A stretch of 64,000 nucleotides of DNA from IMG/VR virus record IMGVR_UViG_3300031227_000038, positions 1-64,000 of that record. One strand, given 5' to 3'. This document shows positions 10,577-53,227 of the stretch, piece by piece (the first letter of the stretch is position 1; each line of letters opens with the position of its first letter). The stretch is from a virus. The translations under genes and the position numbers were made by a program. A model generated the notes under the pieces. It was not told the DNA's origin. It saw only the letters and a list, made by a program, of their open reading frames with translations, and did not search any database.

Positions 10577-12031
10577 TTATACATTATCTTTTACCTCTCT
10601 TAATTTTCTTTCCATTTCATCAAAATTCCAATTACATTCTGCTTTCGTATTAAGTAAACCAACCATAACATTTTTTCTTGTAGTATCTGGAAACTCTAAC
10701 ATATAATTTTCGATTCTTCGAAGAATCTCTCCAACTACTTTACCTGGCTTAATATCAAGAACTTCCATAATATCATTTCCATCAACTGGAATATTAATCT
10801 TATCTGTACCTTCATCTTTCAATTGTTCAATTCTCTTATAGATATTACTTACTTGATTCTCCATTATCCAATCAGGATGATGTGATTTATTATCTGCATC
10901 TACAAGTCTTAAAAGATCATCTAGGTGCTTCATTCTTCTTATTAATTTTCTAATAGATGAATCCTTAACAATAACTTCATCTTTCCAGGACTTTACATAC
11001 ATATGATTTTCGACTAAGAAAGTGATATAGTCAACATCATTGTTAGAAAACCTAAGTCCTTCTAATATAGTTTTTGCTATCTGAGCGCCAACTAATTCAT
11101 GCTTACGAAAATGAAACATCCCGTCTTCTCCAGCTGCTACTGTATCTATCTTTCCAATATCGTGTAGGAGTGCTGCTATCTTTTCTAAAGCACCTCCGCC
11201 ATTATCTTCTACCTTATCAACAACTTTTAAAGTATGTATAAGAGCATTGTCAGTATGATATTTGTTTAGCGGCATCTGCTTTAAATGATTAATATTATAT
11301 CCAAACATAAAATTTAACCAGTCGATGCTTTCCGCAATGCGAATAAAATTAGAGAAATTTTTACTACTTGCAGCTTTAATAATTTCATCTTTAATTCTTT
11401 CCTTACTAATATTATCAGCAAGTAAAATTGCTTGCATCATAGCATCTATAGTATAAAAATCAATCTTGAAATCATATCTTGCTGCAAATCTAAATCCTCT
11501 GATTACTCTCAGAGTATCTTCTTCGAATCTTTCAGTGGCATTTCCAACAGTTTTTATAATTTTATTTTTAAGATCGCTTTGCCCATTAAATGGGTCAATA
11601 ATTACATCAGGATAGTTCATATCAATTGCCATTGCATTGATTGTAAAATCTCTTCGGGATAAGTCTTCTTCAATTGTCTTTGCAAACTTAACATCTGTAT
11701 GACGCCCGTCACAATTATGATCAGTTCTGAAAGTTGTAATTTCAAATATTGAACCACTCACTCCAATCATTATAAATGTTACAGTACCAAATGCTGAGCC
11801 AGTATCAATTACTTTATATAATGCCTTATCCTCTGATAGTACGCAATTCCAACCTAACATTTCCGCCGGAGTTGCGTCAGTGGCAAAATCATAATCATGC
11901 GGCTCATTTCCAAGAACCAGATCTCTAACAGCTCCGCCTACTAGAAATAGTTGACGACCTTTAACATTAAAGACACCTTTTAGTACTCTAATATCTTCTG
12001 TCATTATAATTTTTTTCTTAATACTAACCAT
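10577..12031 (-). CDS. cca: CCA-adding tRNA nucleotidyltransferase with HD domain
   Basis: GGAVRDLVLG...DYDFATDA head motifs, and LLHDIGK in the HD domain. Confidence 0.85.
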   Translation of the reverse strand: MVSIKKKIIMTEDIRVLKGVFNVKGRQLFLVGGAVRDLVLGNEPHDYDFATDATPAEMLGWNCVLSEDKALYKVIDTGSAFGTVTFIMIGVSGSIFEITTFRTDHNCDGRHTDVKFAKTIEEDLSRRDFTINAMAIDMNYPDVIIDPFNGQSDLKNKIIKTVGNATERFEEDTLRVIRGFRFAARYDFKIDFYTIDAMMQAILLADNISKERIKDEIIKAASSKNFSNFIRIAESIDWLNFMFGYNINHLKQMPLNKYHTDNALIHTLKVVDKVEDNGGGALEKIAALLHDIGKIDTVAAGEDGMFHFRKHELVGAQIAKTILEGLRFSNNDVDYITFLVENHMYVKSWKDEVIVKDSSIRKLIRRMKHLDDLLRLVDADNKSHHPDWIMENQVSNIYKRIEQLKDEGTDKINIPVDGNDIMEVLDIKPGKVVGEILRRIENYMLEFPDTTRKNVMVGLLNTKAECNWNFDEMERKLREVKDNV

Positions 12032-12185
12032 CTTAATAACCTCCAAGTTATTTTTTAATCTCATATATATAATATAAACTAATTATAAAAAATAGTAACT
12101 TATTTTTAAAAAAAAGAGAGAAGGAACATGTCAAAAATCCTTCTCTCCCACCCCTACGGTGTGAATGTAAACCAATTACACTAAT

Positions 12186-13382
12186 CTATTTTCCTACTGA
12201 AGATTTCGCCATATTTCTACTAATTTCAATGAAACTTTGAAGTCCGACTGCATCAAACGGATTCAGTGCACTGGTTCCATCTCCGCCCTGACCTAGAACC
12301 ATTGTAGTTGGAAATACGACTTTCGACAATGCTTGTGCTACACCAATAGCAGTTTCTTTATCAATTTGCGCTTTCAGTAAAGGAGTTAAACCAGCTTTAA
12401 CAAGCAATGCATTTGCTTTAGCTTCAGTCTCTTTTTCTACAAGGATAGCAGCTGCTTTTTCAATTGCTTCTTTTCTATTCCACTCAGCAACTTCAAAATT
12501 CTTTTGTGCCTGAGTAGTAGCTTGGATCTTAATAACCAATTCGTCTGCTTGTGCTTTAGCTATACGAGCTTTACCCATTTCTTCCTCAGTAATAGCATCC
12601 TGCTTTGCTCTTTCGGCATTAGCACGAGCAACAACTTTTTGCTGTTCAGCTTCTTTCTTCTTTGAAATTAAATTATCAATAGTAGCATCAAAGTCAATTT
12701 CTTTTATAATGAACTGGAGAATCGAAATATTATATCTTATAAAAGGACTTTCTTTCCTTACTATCGGTAATCCGTCTTTGGTAAGTTTTAAAACAGTTTC
12801 TCGTTCGATAAAATCATTACCTTCGGTATCTTGAACTTTCTTTTCAACAGAAACCGTTTCATAAATTCCGAATCGAATTTGATTCTCTGCCAATGAAGTA
12901 AATTCCGCACGTCTGGTGGAATATGATTCTTCAGCTTTCATTAATGTAGCAGTTTGCATAAGAGCTTCTGATACTACTTGTCGAATTAAATCTTGCTGAA
13001 TTGCAGTGTAACTTTTAAATTCTCTATGTAGTGATAACTCATCTTGTTCTTTTTGACTTAACTTAAATTTAATAGCTCCAGAAATATCTGCAGTACCACC
13101 ATCGTTGAATCTAACTTTAATTGGTTGTGAATCTTCACCTACTCCACCGTCGAGATCTGACTTTGAAAAATAGCTCATATCAGAAATCTGATATTTTGTT
13201 AACTTAGCAAAAAATTGTGGGAATACTCCCGGTTCATTTCTCACTGTCATATTACCTGTTAGAGCTGCCTGTTTAACGATGTAATAACCTGCATTGTTTG
13301 TTTCTACTAAACTTCCTGCTAATGCAACTAATACTATAGCTGCGACTACGAATAAAATTACAGCAATTGTGCCTTTACCCAT
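12186..13382 (-). CDS. SPFH/band-7 (HflK/C, flotillin-like) membrane protein
   Basis: N-terminal transmembrane segment, an SPFH-like core and a long coiled-coil tail. Confidence 0.7.
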   Translation of the reverse strand: MGKGTIAVILFVVAAIVLVALAGSLVETNNAGYYIVKQAALTGNMTVRNEPGVFPQFFAKLTKYQISDMSYFSKSDLDGGVGEDSQPIKVRFNDGGTADISGAIKFKLSQKEQDELSLHREFKSYTAIQQDLIRQVVSEALMQTATLMKAEESYSTRRAEFTSLAENQIRFGIYETVSVEKKVQDTEGNDFIERETVLKLTKDGLPIVRKESPFIRYNISILQFIIKEIDFDATIDNLISKKKEAEQQKVVARANAERAKQDAITEEEMGKARIAKAQADELVIKIQATTQAQKNFEVAEWNRKEAIEKAAAILVEKETEAKANALLVKAGLTPLLKAQIDKETAIGVAQALSKVVFPTTMVLGQGGDGTSALNPFDAVGLQSFIEISRNMAKSSVGK

Positions 13383-19132: not shown

Positions 19133-20335
19133 TTACCCCTTTATTACTGCTAGCGGCATCAACTTAGTAACTACCTTGACAAGATCTTCCTGATTATACA
19201 TAACACTATTAATATCTTTATAAGCACCAGGTGCTTCATCTAAATCTCTTTCATGTCTGATTCCATGAATGATTTCTTGATCATCTAATATTTTAATTTG
19301 CTCATTAAGGCTCAATTCATTTTGAGCTTTGGTTCTTGACATCAATCTGCCGGCTCCATGAGAGCAAGACATAAAGCTATCTGGATTTCCGAGTCCATTA
19401 ACTATATACGATGGAGTACCTGGAGAGCCTGGTATAATTCCTATAGTTCCTGTTCTCGCAAGAGTGGCTCCCTTTCTATGAACTAAAACATTTTCGCCAA
19501 AGTGATTCTCCATTTGAGCATAGTTATGAGCTATATTAATCATGCTAGATAAATCAATAGTTTTCCAACTCATAATAATATCAAACGATTCTTTAATTCT
19601 TTCCATCATTAATGCTCTATTTGCAAAAGCATACTCAACTGCAAAGTTCATTTCACGAAGATAATTTTGAGCATATTCAGTACCAAACGGTAAGAATGCT
19701 AATTGATATTCTGTAGGAATTTGCGTATGCCAGATTTTGTTATTCTTAATAGCAATATTATTGTAATAATCAGCGATTCTTTTACCTAAGTTACGTGAAC
19801 CAGAATGAACCATTACCCAAATATTCTCTTCTTTATCTTTCTGAATTTCAATGAAGTGATTTCCACCACCCATTGTTCCTAATTGTGTCATAGATGCTTC
19901 ATAGCGACGAAAGCTAATTTCCCCGAGATCGTATCCAGTACGACCATTCATTAATTTTACCATTGCATCTATCTGAGGACTATTATGACTATTTTTTCCA
20001 AGTGGTATTCTTTTACGAATCTCAGCCATAATACGTAATATTTCATTACGTGGTATCTCATGTGTTTTCCATGGTGTTTTCACAGCACACATTCCACAAC
20101 CAATATCAACACCGACTGCATTTGGAATTACCACATTTCTAGTCGCTATAACTCCGCCGATCGGCATTCCATATCCTTGGTGACAGTCCGGCATTAATGC
20201 TACGTGTTTAAATATGAATGGTAGAGATGCTAAGTTTCGTGCCTGTTGTAATGCTCCTTCTTCTATTTCATTAAATGGTAGCCAATGCTTGATTGGTTTT
20301 ACTCCACTATCTTTTTCAAATATTACTCCGTTCAT
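19133..20335 (-). CDS. rtcB: RtcB RNA 3'-phosphate/2',3'-cyclic phosphate ligase
   Basis: ALQQARNLASLP, MPDCHQGYGMPIGGV and SHGAGR are hallmark RtcB motifs. Confidence 0.9.
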   Translation of the reverse strand: MNGVIFEKDSGVKPIKHWLPFNEIEEGALQQARNLASLPFIFKHVALMPDCHQGYGMPIGGVIATRNVVIPNAVGVDIGCGMCAVKTPWKTHEIPRNEILRIMAEIRKRIPLGKNSHNSPQIDAMVKLMNGRTGYDLGEISFRRYEASMTQLGTMGGGNHFIEIQKDKEENIWVMVHSGSRNLGKRIADYYNNIAIKNNKIWHTQIPTEYQLAFLPFGTEYAQNYLREMNFAVEYAFANRALMMERIKESFDIIMSWKTIDLSSMINIAHNYAQMENHFGENVLVHRKGATLARTGTIGIIPGSPGTPSYIVNGLGNPDSFMSCSHGAGRLMSRTKAQNELSLNEQIKILDDQEIIHGIRHERDLDEAPGAYKDINSVMYNQEDLVKVVTKLMPLAVIKG

Positions 20336-24348: not shown

Positions 24349-25197
24349 TTAGTAATTTCCATATCTTTCCCAATCTTCTTGAGCTTCCCACCAATTAAAA
24401 TGTGACATCGGATGTAGTTTATGCTGAGAATTTTTATTTAGCTTTCTAATTTTTAACCAGGTTTTAATATGAACAGGCAATGAATAAGTTGAGTCTTCCC
24501 ATCTTGCATCCATCCATTCATATAACTCTATATTAGTCAAATTATGACGATATTGTTCAATTACAGTATCAAGTTCGGCATATAAAAATCCCAGCTCATC
24601 TTCATCAGTTTGTCCGTCCCATAATCCTGCAGTAGGTACTTTATTAAGAATCTCTGCTGGTAGTCCTAATTTCTCTCCCCATTTCCAAACTTCAGTCTTT
24701 GTAAGATGAACTATTGGAGCAATATCTCCAGCAGCGTCACCATATTTAGTTTCATAGCCAACAAGTGTTTCTGACATATTACAAGTATTTAAAACGAGAG
24801 CGTTAAATCTTGCTGCTGAATTATAGAGTTGTGTCATCCTTATTCTTGCCATAATGTTTCCTTTACGATAGTTGTCCTTTTCTGAAAACGAATCAACCGT
24901 TTCTTTAATGCTCATTTCAATATAATGTCCATCTAGTCCAAGACTATCAAGATAATCGTCAGCAGGTATTAAATTACCTACATGCTCGAAATACGGAAGC
25001 TTATATGCAAAAACATGATCACTTCCAACTGCCATTACTGCCAACACTGTAACAAGTGCGGAATCGATTCCTCCAGAATATCCAATTATGTAATTCTTTT
25101 TTCCTGAGTCTGCTAATTTTCTCTCTAGGAAGTTAATTACTTTTTTAATTGGTCGATTTTCATTTAAAATTCGCCCATAGTTTACCTTACTATACAT
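24349..25197 (-). CDS. nadE: NH3-dependent NAD+ synthetase NadE
   Basis: YIIGYSGGIDSALV PP-loop. Confidence 0.85.
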   Translation of the reverse strand: MYSKVNYGRILNENRPIKKVINFLERKLADSGKKNYIIGYSGGIDSALVTVLAVMAVGSDHVFAYKLPYFEHVGNLIPADDYLDSLGLDGHYIEMSIKETVDSFSEKDNYRKGNIMARIRMTQLYNSAARFNALVLNTCNMSETLVGYETKYGDAAGDIAPIVHLTKTEVWKWGEKLGLPAEILNKVPTAGLWDGQTDEDELGFLYAELDTVIEQYRHNLTNIELYEWMDARWEDSTYSLPVHIKTWLKIRKLNKNSQHKLHPMSHFNWWEAQEDWERYGNY

Positions 25198-25541
25198 CTA
25201 TATACTCCTCGTTTTCTTTAATTTTTAAGTTATGTCATAACTTTTAACATAATGTGGTGTTGGAGAGTCATCTATTCTCCATACATCTATTTTTGTACCA
25301 GAAAAAGATACAGAAAATAGAGTTTCAGGAAGCTTTTCAAACTTAAAAACCACATCAACTATTACTGTACTGGGTGGTGTTAAAATATTATTTATTCCTA
25401 TATGCGATAGCTCTTAAGGTTCCTTTTTCACATACAACAGCTTTGAGCTCTGAATTGATATGCATAATACAATTATACTTAAATAAACTATGATTAAAAA
25501 GTATAATTCTATCACCTCCGTAGCCTTGTCTAATAGTAATA

Positions 25542-26726
25542 CTAAGATTCTCCATTTACATGCTCCTTCATAAATTCTAAATAATTTTTATTTCTACACA
25601 TTGCCTTCTCAGGTGTATCTGATATTTTTACAACTGGCATTCCATTACACATTTGCATTTTAATTACAATTGACAATGGCTTTATTCCATCACAATCATT
25701 AGTGAGATTAGTTCCTATACCAAATGATATTTTAATTTTACTCTTAAACTTATCAAAAAGTCTTTTTGCTTTAACTAAATCTAACGAATCACTGAATACA
25801 ATTGTCTTTGTCATCGGATCAATGCCTAGCTTTTTATAATGCATAATAGTCTCTTTTGCAAAATCTTCAGGATCGCCACTATCATGTCTAACTCCATCAA
25901 ACATTTTTGCTAAATCAGCTGTAAAATCTTCAAAGAATTTTTTACTTCCAAGAGTATCTGATAATGCTATTCCTAGATCGCCTTTAAATTCCTTTGCCCA
26001 TAAATATAATATATCTTTCTGATGAGTAGGTAGTGGGAGTAATGCCTGTGCAGCCATTATTACTTCATGTGCCATTGTACCAATTGGTGTTAATCTATGC
26101 TTCATTGCAAAGTGAACATTACTTGTCCCAACAAACGTTACAGGACTTATTCCATATAATTCCGAAATTACTTTATCTTGATTTTCACGACTATGTCGTC
26201 TTCTTGTACCAAAATCTGCAAAATGAAAACCATCTGAACTAATATCTTCGGCATAATTATACTTTTTAACTAAACGATTTCGCGCTTCAACAGTCGTATG
26301 ATACCAATTACTTTGCTCCTTTAAGTCGTTTTTTTTATGATAAATTTCAGATATAATTGCAAGTATAGGAACTTCATATAATATAGTATTAATCCATAAG
26401 CCTTTGATTGTAATTGCAAGTTGACCATCTTTCTCAGTTACTCTTACTTCTTCCTCAGGATTAAATTTAAAGTTATATAACCAATCAACATAATCTTCTG
26501 ATAAGAACCTTAAATTTCTAAGATAACAATCTTCATCAGATGTAAGCTTTAAAAATTGTAGGTTACTTATTGCCACAGCAATATCGAGTTTATACGATCT
26601 TAAGTCAACATCAGAACGAATTGATAAGTCGTATTCGACCTCGACATTATTAAAGTTATGCAATACGAATTGTTGCATCGTAAATTTATATAAGTCGTTA
26701 TCTAGGATACTATTAATAATACTCAT
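25542..26726 (-). CDS. pncB: nicotinate phosphoribosyltransferase PncB
   Basis: N-terminus ILDNDLYKFTMQQFV matches the PncB LDTDAYKLHMQQAV signature. Confidence 0.8.
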   Translation of the reverse strand: MSIINSILDNDLYKFTMQQFVLHNFNNVEVEYDLSIRSDVDLRSYKLDIAVAISNLQFLKLTSDEDCYLRNLRFLSEDYVDWLYNFKFNPEEEVRVTEKDGQLAITIKGLWINTILYEVPILAIISEIYHKKNDLKEQSNWYHTTVEARNRLVKKYNYAEDISSDGFHFADFGTRRRHSRENQDKVISELYGISPVTFVGTSNVHFAMKHRLTPIGTMAHEVIMAAQALLPLPTHQKDILYLWAKEFKGDLGIALSDTLGSKKFFEDFTADLAKMFDGVRHDSGDPEDFAKETIMHYKKLGIDPMTKTIVFSDSLDLVKAKRLFDKFKSKIKISFGIGTNLTNDCDGIKPLSIVIKMQMCNGMPVVKISDTPEKAMCRNKNYLEFMKEHVNGES

Positions 26727-50683: not shown

Positions 50684-50740
50684 ACATGATTTAATTTAGT
50701 AAAAAATAAAAACAATGACGAAGAGTAATACATCACGACC

Positions 50741-51420
50741 GGCCTTTGACAACCGGTTATGGGAGTCGAACCCAATTTAAAAAGGAACTGTTTATGTCAT
50801 TGTTCTCATTCAATTTATGAAGGCGGGAAGTAAGTTTTTTACCAATTAAAAGTTTAAAGGAACTTCCAATGCCTTATGTTTCTTAAAAATTTAGGATGAT
50901 TAGTAGGTGCCGCCACTCTACCAGTTGAGCTACTTCCCCATAAAAACTTTGGCAGGGAAGGTAGGACTCGAACCTACAAACAAGCGGATTGATTGTTTTC
51001 AAAGGAACTAATTTATATCCTTTTTTAACTTTTTTTTTAAAAATAACAATTATAAGATGATCAGTAATTATAGGCGGCTACTCTACCAGTTGAGTTACGT
51101 TGGTTCACTCTAGGCTTAACAACGATGGGATTCGAACCCACAACTAGCTGCTTGGTTTTTCAAAGGAACTGATTAATATCTTATTTTCTAATTTATATGG
51201 ACGGCTGGTAAGGTTGCTTAGAAGGCAACTGCTGATTATGCAGTTTAAGGAACCGGCTTATGTCCAATCTTTAGACGGTTAGTAATTTTTTTTTTATCAT
51301 TGTTTTTCAAAGGAACTAACTATGTCTAATGTATACTTAATCATATGAGGCGGGCAGTAGTTTTTGGTTAAAGCGGCGAACCGCTTCCCTATGTTTTTCA
51401 AAGGAACTGCCTAAGCCTCG
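50741..51420 (-). repeat. Repeat-rich non-coding block with 7 copies of a TTTTCAAAGGAACT(nnn)TATGTC motif, a second repeat family (AAAAACT(T)ACTnCCCGCCT(T)CATA, 2 copies) and tRNA half-like segments
   Basis: Motif copies at about 50780, 50853, 50996, 51156, 51243, 51303 and 51395. T-arm/acceptor-like segments at 50741-50775, 50949-50985 and 51124-51155. D-arm/acceptor-5' segments at 50918-50940 and 51070-51105. Confidence 0.7.
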
Positions 51421-51430
51421 TTTTTTATTT

Positions 51431-53227
51431 CTATGCAAATAATTCAATTAACGTTGCTTTGTTAAGCTCAGTCAAATCAATTTCTGCTTCTTCTTCTACA
51501 AATTCAAATCCAGCTTCTTTTAATATGTCATTTAAATAAACATAACAATCAACTGTATTTTTAACGTATTCAATATATTCTGTTCTTTGCCCATGTGAAA
51601 CTTTTGAATTACCAGTACTTACATTCGCAAAAACAAATTTGTTATTAACTACCAGTCCCAAAGTATTCTCCTTTCGGTCACTTTCTAAGTCAACCTGAAA
51701 TACAATGTTATTTGGATCAACCATATTCTTGTTTTCATATCTTCGTCTAGGTTCATATACTTCTGTTGCTATAAACATTTTAAATTTATACTCTGGATTA
51801 GCACTATATGCGTTAACCTTAAAGATACAAGCATTTTCACCAAATCCATTTTCTCCATATATAAATTCATTGGCTCCATTCTGCGCATTAGTAATATCAC
51901 CTGAATAGATCACTGACTTATTTCCGTTATAATAGCTTGAATTCCAACCTATCTTATTACCGGAAATATCAACATATGACAAGTCAAGATCTACTGCTCC
52001 ATCACTATTTTTCCAATATATACCAACCATAGCGTTCTTATCTGCTAAGTCTAAACTCGTTCCAATTGGAATATTTCCAATGAAAGACTTCTCACTTGTT
52101 GGAGCTGTAATGTTTAATCCTACTGGAATCTTCACAGTTGTTGCTTTCTTCGCCATAGACTTTACAAGACTCTTGAATATTTTTGTGTACATTTCGTAGT
52201 AAAGACCTTCTACATAAGTTGATAACTTGCTGTCTTCTACTGTCTTTATATAAAGCTTTTGATTTCTAATCAAATAAGCTTTTGTACTCAAATTTTTCTT
52301 ACGAACGCTAATCGCCTGAAGTAAAACAACTTTCTTATAGTTGTTCAATTTTGAAAGCATTTCATCTAATTTATCAAGCTTTGCTTGACTTGGATCAGTA
52401 AGTAATGTTTCAAAATACTTTTTTCTATATGGAACATGATTAGTCTTAGAATATTTACTAAGCTTGTTAATGATAGCTTTATTTCCAGGTGTATTTCTCA
52501 TTGCCAGGAACAAAGGTTTGTATCTATTGAAAACAGCAGATAGTTTCTTTACTCCAAATGTTACAATGAAAGGAGAAACATCAATTTGATTTTCCTTAAT
52601 CATTCTAATAGTTGCATCATTCTTAACAACCATTGAACGCCCTGTAAACATATCTATTAAGAATCTAACAAACTCTTCTGAAGACTCTGGAAATACATTA
52701 AATTCTTTACAAAGAATCATTTTTGCTTCTCTGTTTTTAATGTCTGCTGGCGTAAAAGCCGTTTTTAATTCTTTTATCAAGAATATTAAATCATTTATAG
52801 TCTCTCCATCAAGAGCTATTCCTGAGCCAAGCATAGTCATAACACTTTCTGTAACTTCATCTCTGTCAATTGCTTTAATTACTTTCATATCTGTAAACGA
52901 AATTGCCTCAATACCATTATGTGGTAAGTAATCTTCGCCTTCAAAATTAGTTCCGTATGTTGACATGTAATGTACGATTTGGTCGATAAACAACTCAAAT
53001 CTACTTTTACTTATAACGTCATTCCAAGTTTTATAGAACGACTTATTGTAATCAACCTTTTGTGTATTTAGCCAAACTAGTACACTTGAAACACATAGTT
53101 CTTCTGGTACAAAATATCCAAGTTTTGCAGCGACTTTGTTTACTTCTGCAAAATCTAATAGACTTTCCTTTTCAATGTACGGAATGGCCGCGTTAAATAG
53201 CCTTAGTGTAACTTCATTAACTCTCAT
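51431..53227 (-). CDS. large hypothetical protein (598 aa)
   Basis: Intact ORF with no recognisable motif. Confidence 0.55.
   Translation of the reverse strand: MRVNEVTLRLFNAAIPYIEKESLLDFAEVNKVAAKLGYFVPEELCVSSVLVWLNTQKVDYNKSFYKTWNDVISKSRFELFIDQIVHYMSTYGTNFEGEDYLPHNGIEAISFTDMKVIKAIDRDEVTESVMTMLGSGIALDGETINDLIFLIKELKTAFTPADIKNREAKMILCKEFNVFPESSEEFVRFLIDMFTGRSMVVKNDATIRMIKENQIDVSPFIVTFGVKKLSAVFNRYKPLFLAMRNTPGNKAIINKLSKYSKTNHVPYRKKYFETLLTDPSQAKLDKLDEMLSKLNNYKKVVLLQAISVRKKNLSTKAYLIRNQKLYIKTVEDSKLSTYVEGLYYEMYTKIFKSLVKSMAKKATTVKIPVGLNITAPTSEKSFIGNIPIGTSLDLADKNAMVGIYWKNSDGAVDLDLSYVDISGNKIGWNSSYYNGNKSVIYSGDITNAQNGANEFIYGENGFGENACIFKVNAYSANPEYKFKMFIATEVYEPRRRYENKNMVDPNNIVFQVDLESDRKENTLGLVVNNKFVFANVSTGNSKVSHGQRTEYIEYVKNTVDCYVYLNDILKEAGFEFVEEEAEIDLTELNKATLIELFA

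Follow-up and report, generated by a model that had tools for sequence, protein, structure and literature searches.

An array of small structured RNAs lies beside an unannotated gene

In a 64,000-nucleotide (nt) stretch of viral DNA (positions 1 to 64,000 of IMG/VR virus record IMGVR_UViG_3300031227_000038; hereafter, the window), we found that the minus strand of positions 50717-51417 encodes a tandem array of seven units belonging to one family of small structured RNAs. The array starts, with the outer helix (P0) of unit A, 13 nt past the stop codon of an open reading frame (ORF) of 598 amino acids (aa) on the same strand, and downstream of unit F come a T-rich tract and then a tRNA-Leu gene (Table 1). 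The units are built on a common handle and differ in the cargo that the handle encloses, which is an A/U-rich loop alone, a hairpin, a T-arm-like hairpin or a tRNA mimic. Units B and E are minimal, at about 52 nt each, and units A, B, B2, E and F have no tRNA-like body. A 14-mer motif, AGTTCCTTTGAAAA, occurs in the block in four exact copies and one copy with two mismatches. When up to two mismatches are allowed, the whole window has seven matches against 1.7 expected, a number reached by 0 of 100 shuffled sequences. Two more degenerate copies stand at the heads of units E and B2, which brings the total to seven units. Neither ARAGORN nor Rfam at gathering thresholds makes a call in the block, and promoter and terminator scans gave only background-level signals, none of them convincing between units.

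Table 1. Units of the array, their parts, and other features of the window.
Feature	Position	Strand	Details
598-aa ORF	51431..53227	minus	putative protein partner
Unit A	51349..51417	minus	handle GGC-UUA-GGCAGU / ACUGCC-C-GCC; model R1 38.5 bits, E 1e-9
Unit A cargo		minus	UUCG-capped hairpin AAGCGG-UUCG-CCGCUU
Unit B	51274..51326	minus	handle-only minimal unit, GAC-AUA-GUUAGU / ACUAAC-C-GUC plus A/U-rich loop; R1 52.6 bits, E 2.5e-14
Unit B2	51200..51264	minus	degenerate; GGUUCC, one C.A mismatch in P1; R1 6.6 bits, marginal
Unit B2 cargo	51229-51213 (second hairpin)	minus	two hairpins; second, GUUGC-CUUCUAA-GCAAC, anticodon-stem-loop-like
Unit C	51056..51180	minus	handle GAU/AUC, AUCAGU/ACUGAU; tRNA-mimic cargo; Rfam YrlA match
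Unit C, stem		minus	GCAGC/GCCGC
Unit C, T arm	51141-51125	minus	
Unit C, acceptor 3' strand	51124-51118	minus	CGTTGTT
Unit C, cap	51117-51105	minus	13 nt
Unit C, acceptor 5' strand	51104-51098	minus	ACCAACG
Unit C, D arm	51095-51080	minus	
Unit D	50895..51019	minus	handle GAU/AUC, AUUAGU/ACUAAU; tRNA-mimic cargo; Rfam YrlA match
Unit D, stem		minus	CCGC/GCGG
Unit D, T arm	50977-50961	minus	GTAGG-TTCGAGT-CCTAC
Unit D, acceptor 3' strand	50960-50954	minus	CTTCCCT
Unit D, G-CCA	50953-50950	minus	directly after the acceptor 3' strand
Unit D, linker	50949-50940	minus	AAGTTTTTAT, 10 nt
Unit D, acceptor 5' strand	50939-50933	minus	GGGGAAG, followed by TA
Unit D, D arm	50930-50915	minus	GCTC-AACTGGTA-GAGT
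Unit E	50822..50873	minus	minimal unit, GGC-AUU-GGAAGU / ACUUCC-C-GCC; R1 49.0 bits, E 3.8e-13
Unit F	50717..50798	minus	handle with one P1 mismatch; R1 26.7 bits, E 7e-6
Unit F cargo	50774-50759 (first hairpin)	minus	T-arm-like hairpin TGGG-TTCGACT-CCCA, then a second hairpin
tRNA-Leu	50683-50607	minus	
tRNA-Ile	41571-41646	minus	UAU anticodon
tRNA with CUA anticodon	40376-40450	minus	ARAGORN label Pyl; amber-suppressor type
RNA ligase	37576-38742	minus	Rnl-type
tmRNA	35372-35745	minus	tag peptide ANNLQLAA*; Rfam 121 bits; inside tRNA-rich region
NadE and NAPRTase	24349-26726	minus	NAD salvage
RtcB	19133-20335	minus	
CCA-adding enzyme	10577-12064	minus	
CCA-adding enzyme and SPFH/Band-7 protein	10577-13382	minus	adjacent genes

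A covarying handle defines the RNA family

The handle consists of two helices separated by an asymmetric bulge. P0 has 3-5 base pairs (bp) with the consensus GGC/GCC, and occurs in the window as GGC/GCC, GAC/GUC and GAU/AUC. It is followed by a bulge of 3-4 nt on the 5' side (AUA) facing a single C, and then by P1, a 6-bp helix whose 5' strand ends in G-U and whose 3' strand carries the matching A-C. A search rule that demanded a 7-bp P1 found no units at all. Past P1, the 5' strand has an unpaired and conserved UCCU(A/U)U.AAA, and the 3' strand a U; in units C and D, P1 leads into UCCUUUGAAAA. In the window units the four nucleotides before AGU/GGU-UCC are complementary to the four after the downstream UAC, and the sequence of P1 differs by unit, being GGCAGU/ACUGCC, GUUAGU/ACUAAC, AUCAGU/ACUGAU, AUUAGU/ACUAAU or GGAAGU/ACUUCC.

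We assessed P1 without a pre-set pairing, by joining each GTTCCT to the nearest TACNNNNCG[CT]. Across 153 such motif pairs, pairing at the four variable positions of P1 is complete in 82%, compared to 9% with shuffled partners, and it is realized in 51 different sequences. P0 is paired in 93% of the motif pairs, compared to 63% with shuffled partners. We then assembled an alignment (A4) of 75 minimal units from other phages, with none from the window and with P0 unused in their selection; here P0 is 98% paired, and both sides change in all three P0 pairs. A covariance model built from this alignment (R1), and thus without window sequences, gave four full-length matches in the 64-kb window, all of them on the minus strand within the block (units A, B, E and F; E-values 2.5e-14 to 7e-6, next best 0.04). 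These four units contain P0, the bulge, P1, the UCCUAU loop and the 3' UAC....CGCC. In units C and D the cargo, at 100 nt, is too long for R1 to span, but direct reading of these two units reveals the same elements. Support for the proposed fold is comparative; energy-based folding by itself gives it none.

Units C and D carry tRNA-like modules in permuted order

On the minus strand, the cargos of units C and D run from a T arm through an acceptor 3' strand, a linker and an acceptor 5' strand to a D arm. The complete mimic is made up of a short stem, a variable region, the T arm, a capped 7-bp acceptor-like helix, U8-A9 and the D arm. The acceptor strands pair at 7/7 positions in unit D, with one G.U, and at 6/7 in unit C. 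Both units have A14, G18 and G19 in the D arm, a UUCGA T loop and an A15-U48 pair, and unit D additionally has U-1/G+1.

For comparison we collected ten permuted tRNA-like units from 8 loci, the window being one of them. These were segmented by hand, because the MAFFT alignment (A3) was structurally inconsistent. In the ten units 68 of 70 acceptor positions are paired, in ten different helix sequences. When acceptor strands are combined across units, a mean of 3.3/7 positions pair and 0 of 90 pairings reach 7; the acceptor pairing is above chance. T stems (50/50) and D stems (40/40) are paired throughout, the T loop consensus is UUCRA, and U8, A14, G18 and G19 are present. Positions 15-48 form a purine-pyrimidine pair in 7/10 units, as A-U and as G-C, and the caps between the acceptor strands measure 4 to 48 nt.

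The permuted order and the complementary, differing acceptor strands had been described in an initial annotation of this DNA, and our direct reading of the minus strand agrees with it on both, including the extent of pairing in its first (D) and second (C) unit. The features lie where it placed them, except that its first unit is off by 1 nt and the end of the second unit's 3' half by about 7 nt. What it took for a truncated third copy does contain a T-arm-like hairpin, which belongs to unit F, one of the handle units. Its repeated motif likewise turns out to be part of the units. Finally, its argument that compensatory change points to selection on the acceptor helix holds in 10/10 units from the 8 loci, and the comparison with homologous phages that it proposed shows covariation in the acceptor helix, P1 and P0 and conservation of the handle.

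At the anticodon position the tRNA likeness ends. Here units C and D have a stem of 4-5 bp (2-5 bp in the relatives). It leads to an asymmetric internal loop, with 16-19 nt in the 5' strand and 5-8 nt in the 3' strand, and this loop is closed by P1 and P0. We found no anticodon loop and no U33/R37 pattern in units C and D or the permuted units of their relatives, and joining the ends would not restore one. The unit ends also lack a bulge-helix-bulge: in place of the 3-4-3 motif they form P0, a 3-4 nt bulge facing one C, and P1. No parental tRNA of unit C or D is identifiable among the tRNAs of the window.

Other units enclose other cargos

Most units are minimal and contain only an A/U-rich loop of 19-36 nt. 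Some of the structured cargos look like pieces of a tRNA: besides the elbow-plus-acceptor body and T-arm hairpins, we noted hairpins shaped like anticodon stem-loops. Hairpins of at least 5 bp with a 7-nt CU-NNN-R-H loop were observed 15 times, compared to 2.2 ± 1.5 in shuffled sequences (about 7-fold). One is the second hairpin of unit B2 and 14 are in related loci, with loops such as CUUCUAA, CUGUAAA, CUGUUAA and CUUUUAA. In two relatives (locus L137, 2138-2213; locus L184, 2465-2540) the handle encloses a whole tRNA-like body in normal order, ending in ACCA. Both bodies have 8-nt anticodon loops and are output by ARAGORN as tRNA-???, with anticodons ggaa and ctat; they could be frameshift-type tRNAs or non-decoding mimics. 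Elsewhere in L137, a tRNA array (703-760) has two successive tRNAs in which the acceptor 3' strand of the first is complementary to the acceptor 5' strand of the second, the two strands standing 7 nt apart (CGGGGGC-TCCAGAT-GCCCCCT). This arrangement shows how a permuted unit could originate from tandem paralogous tRNA genes.

The RNA units are linked to one protein family across phages

The 598-aa ORF has 949 homologues in metagenomes, on contigs of up to 540 kb. Searching their surroundings with a strict unit rule (GTTCC, a perfect 6-bp P1 and a CRY tail), we found units at 64 of 80 viral loci that encode the protein, with about 150 units on the gene strand and 3 on the opposite strand. Nearly all lie within 1 kb of the gene, either upstream or downstream. 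The picture was similar in a second, independent sample, 80 loci taken from genome assemblies of bacteria and archaea that are mostly metagenome bins: units are found at 64 loci, with 101 on the gene strand and 4 opposite, next to homologues with 26-48% protein identity to the window ORF. We also searched in reverse, starting from the RNA. The DNA pattern GGCATANNNNGTTCCTAT had 120 matches, of which 33 were complete units; the protein is encoded in the stored stretch for 21 of these 33, compared to 1 of 87 incomplete matches, and most of the complete units without the protein lie at the ends of stored stretches. An exact scan of viral contigs for AGTTCCTTTGAAAA returned chance matches, with the protein at none of the loci and a doubtful unit in 2 of 120.

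The module is also found in cultured phages, namely Synechococcus phages S-CRM01 (g174) and S-CBWM1 (gp22) and the gut phage Phass-1, and in the genome of Anaerovibrio sp. JC8; R1 finds units beside the gene in all four. BLASTN against GenBank phages returned only tRNA-Leu matches for the window, which therefore has no close sequenced relative. The array of S-CRM01 is overlaid by an annotated ORF on the opposite strand, g173c (L201, 2791-2937; NC_015569, 132391-132537), and that of Phass-1 by an annotated 100-aa coding sequence (L405, 5501-5800); these hypothetical ORFs are probably not genes. Contigs binned with rumen Selenomonadaceae, Bacteroidales and Fibrobacter carry the module particularly often (loci L203-L282). 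It also occurs in bins labelled Methanobacterium, Woesearchaeota and Pacearchaeota, where the contigs are probably co-binned phage contigs.

The candidate partner has a helical and a TerD-like domain

Searches of Pfam, PHROGs, NCBIfam and PADLOC returned nothing for the 598-aa protein, and its sequence has no meaningful match in the PDB. Its structure model shows an N-terminal helical domain (residues about 1-360), a TerD-like beta-sandwich (about 390-535) and C-terminal helices; the beta-sandwich contains the DxDxS and SGD metal-binding motifs characteristic of TerD. The model has no match to Ro60, no TROVE or vWA domain and no nuclease fold, and structural comparison thus indicates that the candidate partner is not Ro60. 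In BFVD it is structurally related to uncharacterised proteins from phages of Campylobacter and Lactobacillus. The family has many invariant Arg, Lys and Tyr residues, among them R188, R235, K237, K299, R321, K324, K361 and K380, which would be compatible with RNA binding, though not proof of it. The stop codon of the ORF is TAG.

The array sits within a tRNA and RNA-repair region

The window contains 25 tRNA genes and a transfer-messenger RNA (tmRNA) gene, all on the minus strand. It also encodes RtcB, a CCA-adding enzyme and an Rnl-type RNA ligase, as the initial annotation had reported in broad terms, and these genes form an RNA-repair and tRNA-maintenance set. One of the tRNAs has a CUA anticodon, a hint that TAG may be recoded in some part of the genome. 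In other phages, 18 of 60 relatives scanned sit among tRNA genes, and the neighbours of the homologues include RNA ligases, a release factor and an aminoacyl-tRNA synthetase. In huge phages (L284, on a 540-kb contig, and L283), genes near the homologue include a split release-factor gene, with PCRF and RF-1 on adjacent ORFs, and genes for a class II aminoacyl-tRNA synthetase, a vWA protein, a 2H phosphoesterase and two RNA ligases.

The units resemble Y RNAs and differ from them in handle and partner

A permissive Rfam scan gave YrlA (RF02553), a bacterial Y RNA that mimics tRNA, as the sole meaningful family for units C and D, next to a weak beta_tmRNA match. Unit C scores 31.9 bits (E 6.5e-5, model positions 24-84) and unit D 31.6 bits (E 8e-5, positions 23-85); six relatives score 35.9-48.1 bits, and the Rfam gathering threshold of 69 bits is not reached anywhere. 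The alignments cover only the tRNA-like part, and in a global alignment the basal helices of the model are deleted or non-canonical and its GNCGAAN0-1G base is not matched by the handle. In YrlA RNAs the T arm, an acceptor stem-loop and the D arm follow each other in this same order, and the anticodon arm is replaced by the Ro60-binding stem, whose base carries the 5' motif GNCGAAN0-1G (Chen et al. 2014, PMC4201824). The permuted order therefore has a known precedent that involves no tRNA maturation. As in YrlA, the units described here have a terminal stem in which the 5' end pairs with the 3' end, covariation at 15-48 in the tRNA-like module, several small RNAs in tandem beside the candidate partner gene on the same strand (Y RNAs are encoded within 4 kb of Ro60, also on the same strand; PMC4201824), associated RtcB-type repair genes, and a variant whose 7-bp acceptor stem may be opened by RNase P. 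They differ in the candidate partner, which has a new helical domain and a TerD-like domain instead of Ro60; in the handle, where UCCUAU.AAA with P0 and P1 stands in place of the two-stem base; and in the cargo, which is interchangeable and mostly absent. Phages are known to encode particles of a structured RNA and an RNA-binding protein: some carry Ro60 and Y-like RNAs (PMC12135203, PMC7824862), among them Thermus phage phiLo, whose Ro60-Yrl particles have been proposed to act on host RNA metabolism (PMC12135203), and a mycobacteriophage with Ro60 and YrlA (PMC4201824). Those particles contain a bona fide Ro60 ring; the protein here belongs to an unannotated family, and its partnership with the RNAs is predicted.

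This resemblance could mean that the units are ordinary YrlA-type Y RNAs, bound by a Ro60/Rsr protein encoded by the phage outside the window or by the host, with the 598-aa protein being unrelated. RtcB would fit, as it accompanies Rsr and Y RNAs in Salmonella (PMC4201824, PMC7790460). Nevertheless, no Ro60/TROVE gene was found among window ORFs of at least 380 aa, three of the four features by which YrlA membership was judged are lacking, and the handle is linked to another protein family in 128 of 160 loci. We regard this explanation as improbable.

The block was initially read as circularly permuted or split tRNA genes, in which case a precursor would be cut and circularised (for example by the phage RtcB), and RNase P and 3' processing would then open the circle within the linker, yielding a tRNA that decodes. 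Circularly permuted tRNA genes reportedly exist in Cyanidioschyzon merolae and some archaea. Their precursors end in a bulge-helix-bulge, which is cut and ligated into a normal anticodon arm or other region. The 3' half standing ahead of the 5' half, the short linker between complementary acceptor ends, the GCCA and U-1/G+1 of unit D, the presence of RtcB and a CCA-adding enzyme and the lack of a called tRNA-Tyr gene in the window would all suit such genes. The units nevertheless cannot form an anticodon loop, lack the bulge-helix-bulge, and have ends closed by a covarying P1 and P0 that form a conserved, protein-type handle also present in units without cargo; in addition, unit C has an acceptor mismatch and no CCA, and some relatives have 4-nt caps and no CCA. 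Together with the failure of ARAGORN, one of the tools that the annotation had named, to call a tRNA gene, these observations make permuted tRNA genes very improbable, and trans-acting split halves are likewise not supported. The tRNA-half-like segments in a tRNA-rich region could also be inactive relics of tRNA genes, left by recombination or mobile elements, which the annotation had listed as an alternative; because many unrelated contigs share the entire architecture and show compensatory changes in it, this reading is refuted and its likelihood negligible. A permuted tRNA-like domain also exists in two-piece tmRNA, with the T arm and the acceptor 3' strand with CCA ahead of the acceptor 5' strand. 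The present units have no mRNA-like reading frame, pseudoknots or G3.U70, their D arm is full and canonical, and the phage already has its own standard tmRNA.

Two further explanations do without a trans-acting particle or without protein binding. The array may act in cis, as a leader or trailer in autoregulation, or as an RNA inhibitor of the adjacent protein in the manner of type III toxin-antitoxin systems. ToxIN-type systems typically have a tandem, same-strand RNA array upstream of the protein gene, and the arrays described here also run in tandem on the strand of the adjacent gene, in most cases directly ahead of it, with the product of that gene as the candidate binding partner. ToxI repeats, however, are near-identical pseudoknots processed by the small endoribonuclease toxin ToxN. 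Here the units differ in P1, loop and cargo, and the array lies upstream, downstream or on both sides of the gene. The protein, at about 600 aa, has no nuclease fold and no match to a defence or toxin model (no ToxN/AbiE-like match in PADLOC, Pfam or structure comparison), and diverse tRNA-like cargos would be left unexplained; we consider action in cis or as a toxin-antitoxin unlikely. Alternatively, the handle may be a mere processing or stabilising cassette, which lets host RNases free small RNAs from a tRNA-operon transcript and protects them with no protein bound. The embedding of the units in tRNA-rich, single-strand transcription units and the lack of convincing promoters or terminators between them would agree with this. 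It leaves unexplained why units and a single protein family are so tightly linked in distant phages, whichever of the two the search starts from, and why the single-stranded UCCUAU motif is conserved, and we give it little credence.

A proposed Y-RNA-like particle with a non-Ro partner

Our data show that the RNAs form a family whose handle is conserved and covaries and whose cargo is modular, that units C and D mimic tRNA, and that the RNA genes are tightly linked, in both search directions, to one protein family in a context of tRNA and RNA-repair genes. We infer, with a probability of roughly 60%, that the units form a Y-RNA-like RNA-protein particle that has a non-Ro partner and displays mimics of tRNA parts, with binding and function as predictions. 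Several observations weigh against this reading. Energy-based folding places the proposed fold 8-9 kcal/mol above the structure of minimum free energy, with z-scores near 0. Most units are without structured cargo, so tRNA mimicry cannot be the general function of the family, and CCA follows the acceptor strand only in unit D of the ten tRNA-like units. Under the strict rule 16 of 80 loci in each set are free of units. The 598-aa protein has no recognised RNA-binding domain, and its helical domain has no informative structural neighbour. Finally, where the array lies directly upstream of the gene, it could be a regulatory leader instead.

In the proposed mechanism, the array would be co-transcribed with the 598-aa gene just upstream and with the neighbouring tRNA genes, and the transcript would be cut into units of about 50 to 125 nt. 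The helical/TerD-like protein would bind each handle, and the resulting particles would present tRNA-like parts to factors that recognise tRNAs. Candidate targets are RNase P and modification enzymes, the CCA-adding enzyme of the phage, and defence nucleases with which the host cleaves tRNAs. The particles may thus act as tethers or decoys during infection, within the tRNA supply and repair apparatus of the phage. In Mycobacterium smegmatis, YrlA is cleaved by RNase P and receives a CCA (PMC4201824). Unit D shares RNase P determinants (the 7-bp helix and U-1/G+1) and has an encoded GCCA, which makes it plausible by analogy that RNase P may open its cap.

We also put forward, as a possibility with the odds against it, a more specific version of the Y-RNA-like particle: a second, Ro-independent Y-RNA-like system, present in many large phages, in which the helical/TerD protein sits on a universal handle with interchangeable mimics of tRNA parts (elbow plus acceptor, T arm, anticodon stem-loop, and bodies with 8-nt loops). 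These might serve as decoys or sponges for host tRNA-cleaving nucleases, or as a platform for tRNA repair or maturation, and unit D might be opened by RNase P to a CCA-ended, possibly chargeable two-piece RNA.

In a literature search we found neither the RNA family nor the protein family described, and no account of phages with permuted tRNA genes. The RNA family is apparently undescribed, its novelty with respect to known Y-RNA-like tRNA mimics being the different handle and the non-Ro partner. Our analysis removes the tempting but wrong claim that this bacteriophage has permuted tRNA genes, and provides a lead on the function of an unannotated protein family of roughly a thousand sequences. 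The covariance model R1 finds the RNAs, and the cultured phages S-CRM01 and S-CBWM1 make the idea testable. Phage tRNA arrays are increasingly viewed as a counter to host defences that target tRNAs (PMC10264068). If our reading is correct, a widespread RNA-protein module of tRNA look-alikes would add a new layer to this conflict between phage and host over tRNA, and would represent a second, independently evolved case of the logic of Ro and Y RNAs, whose function remains debated.

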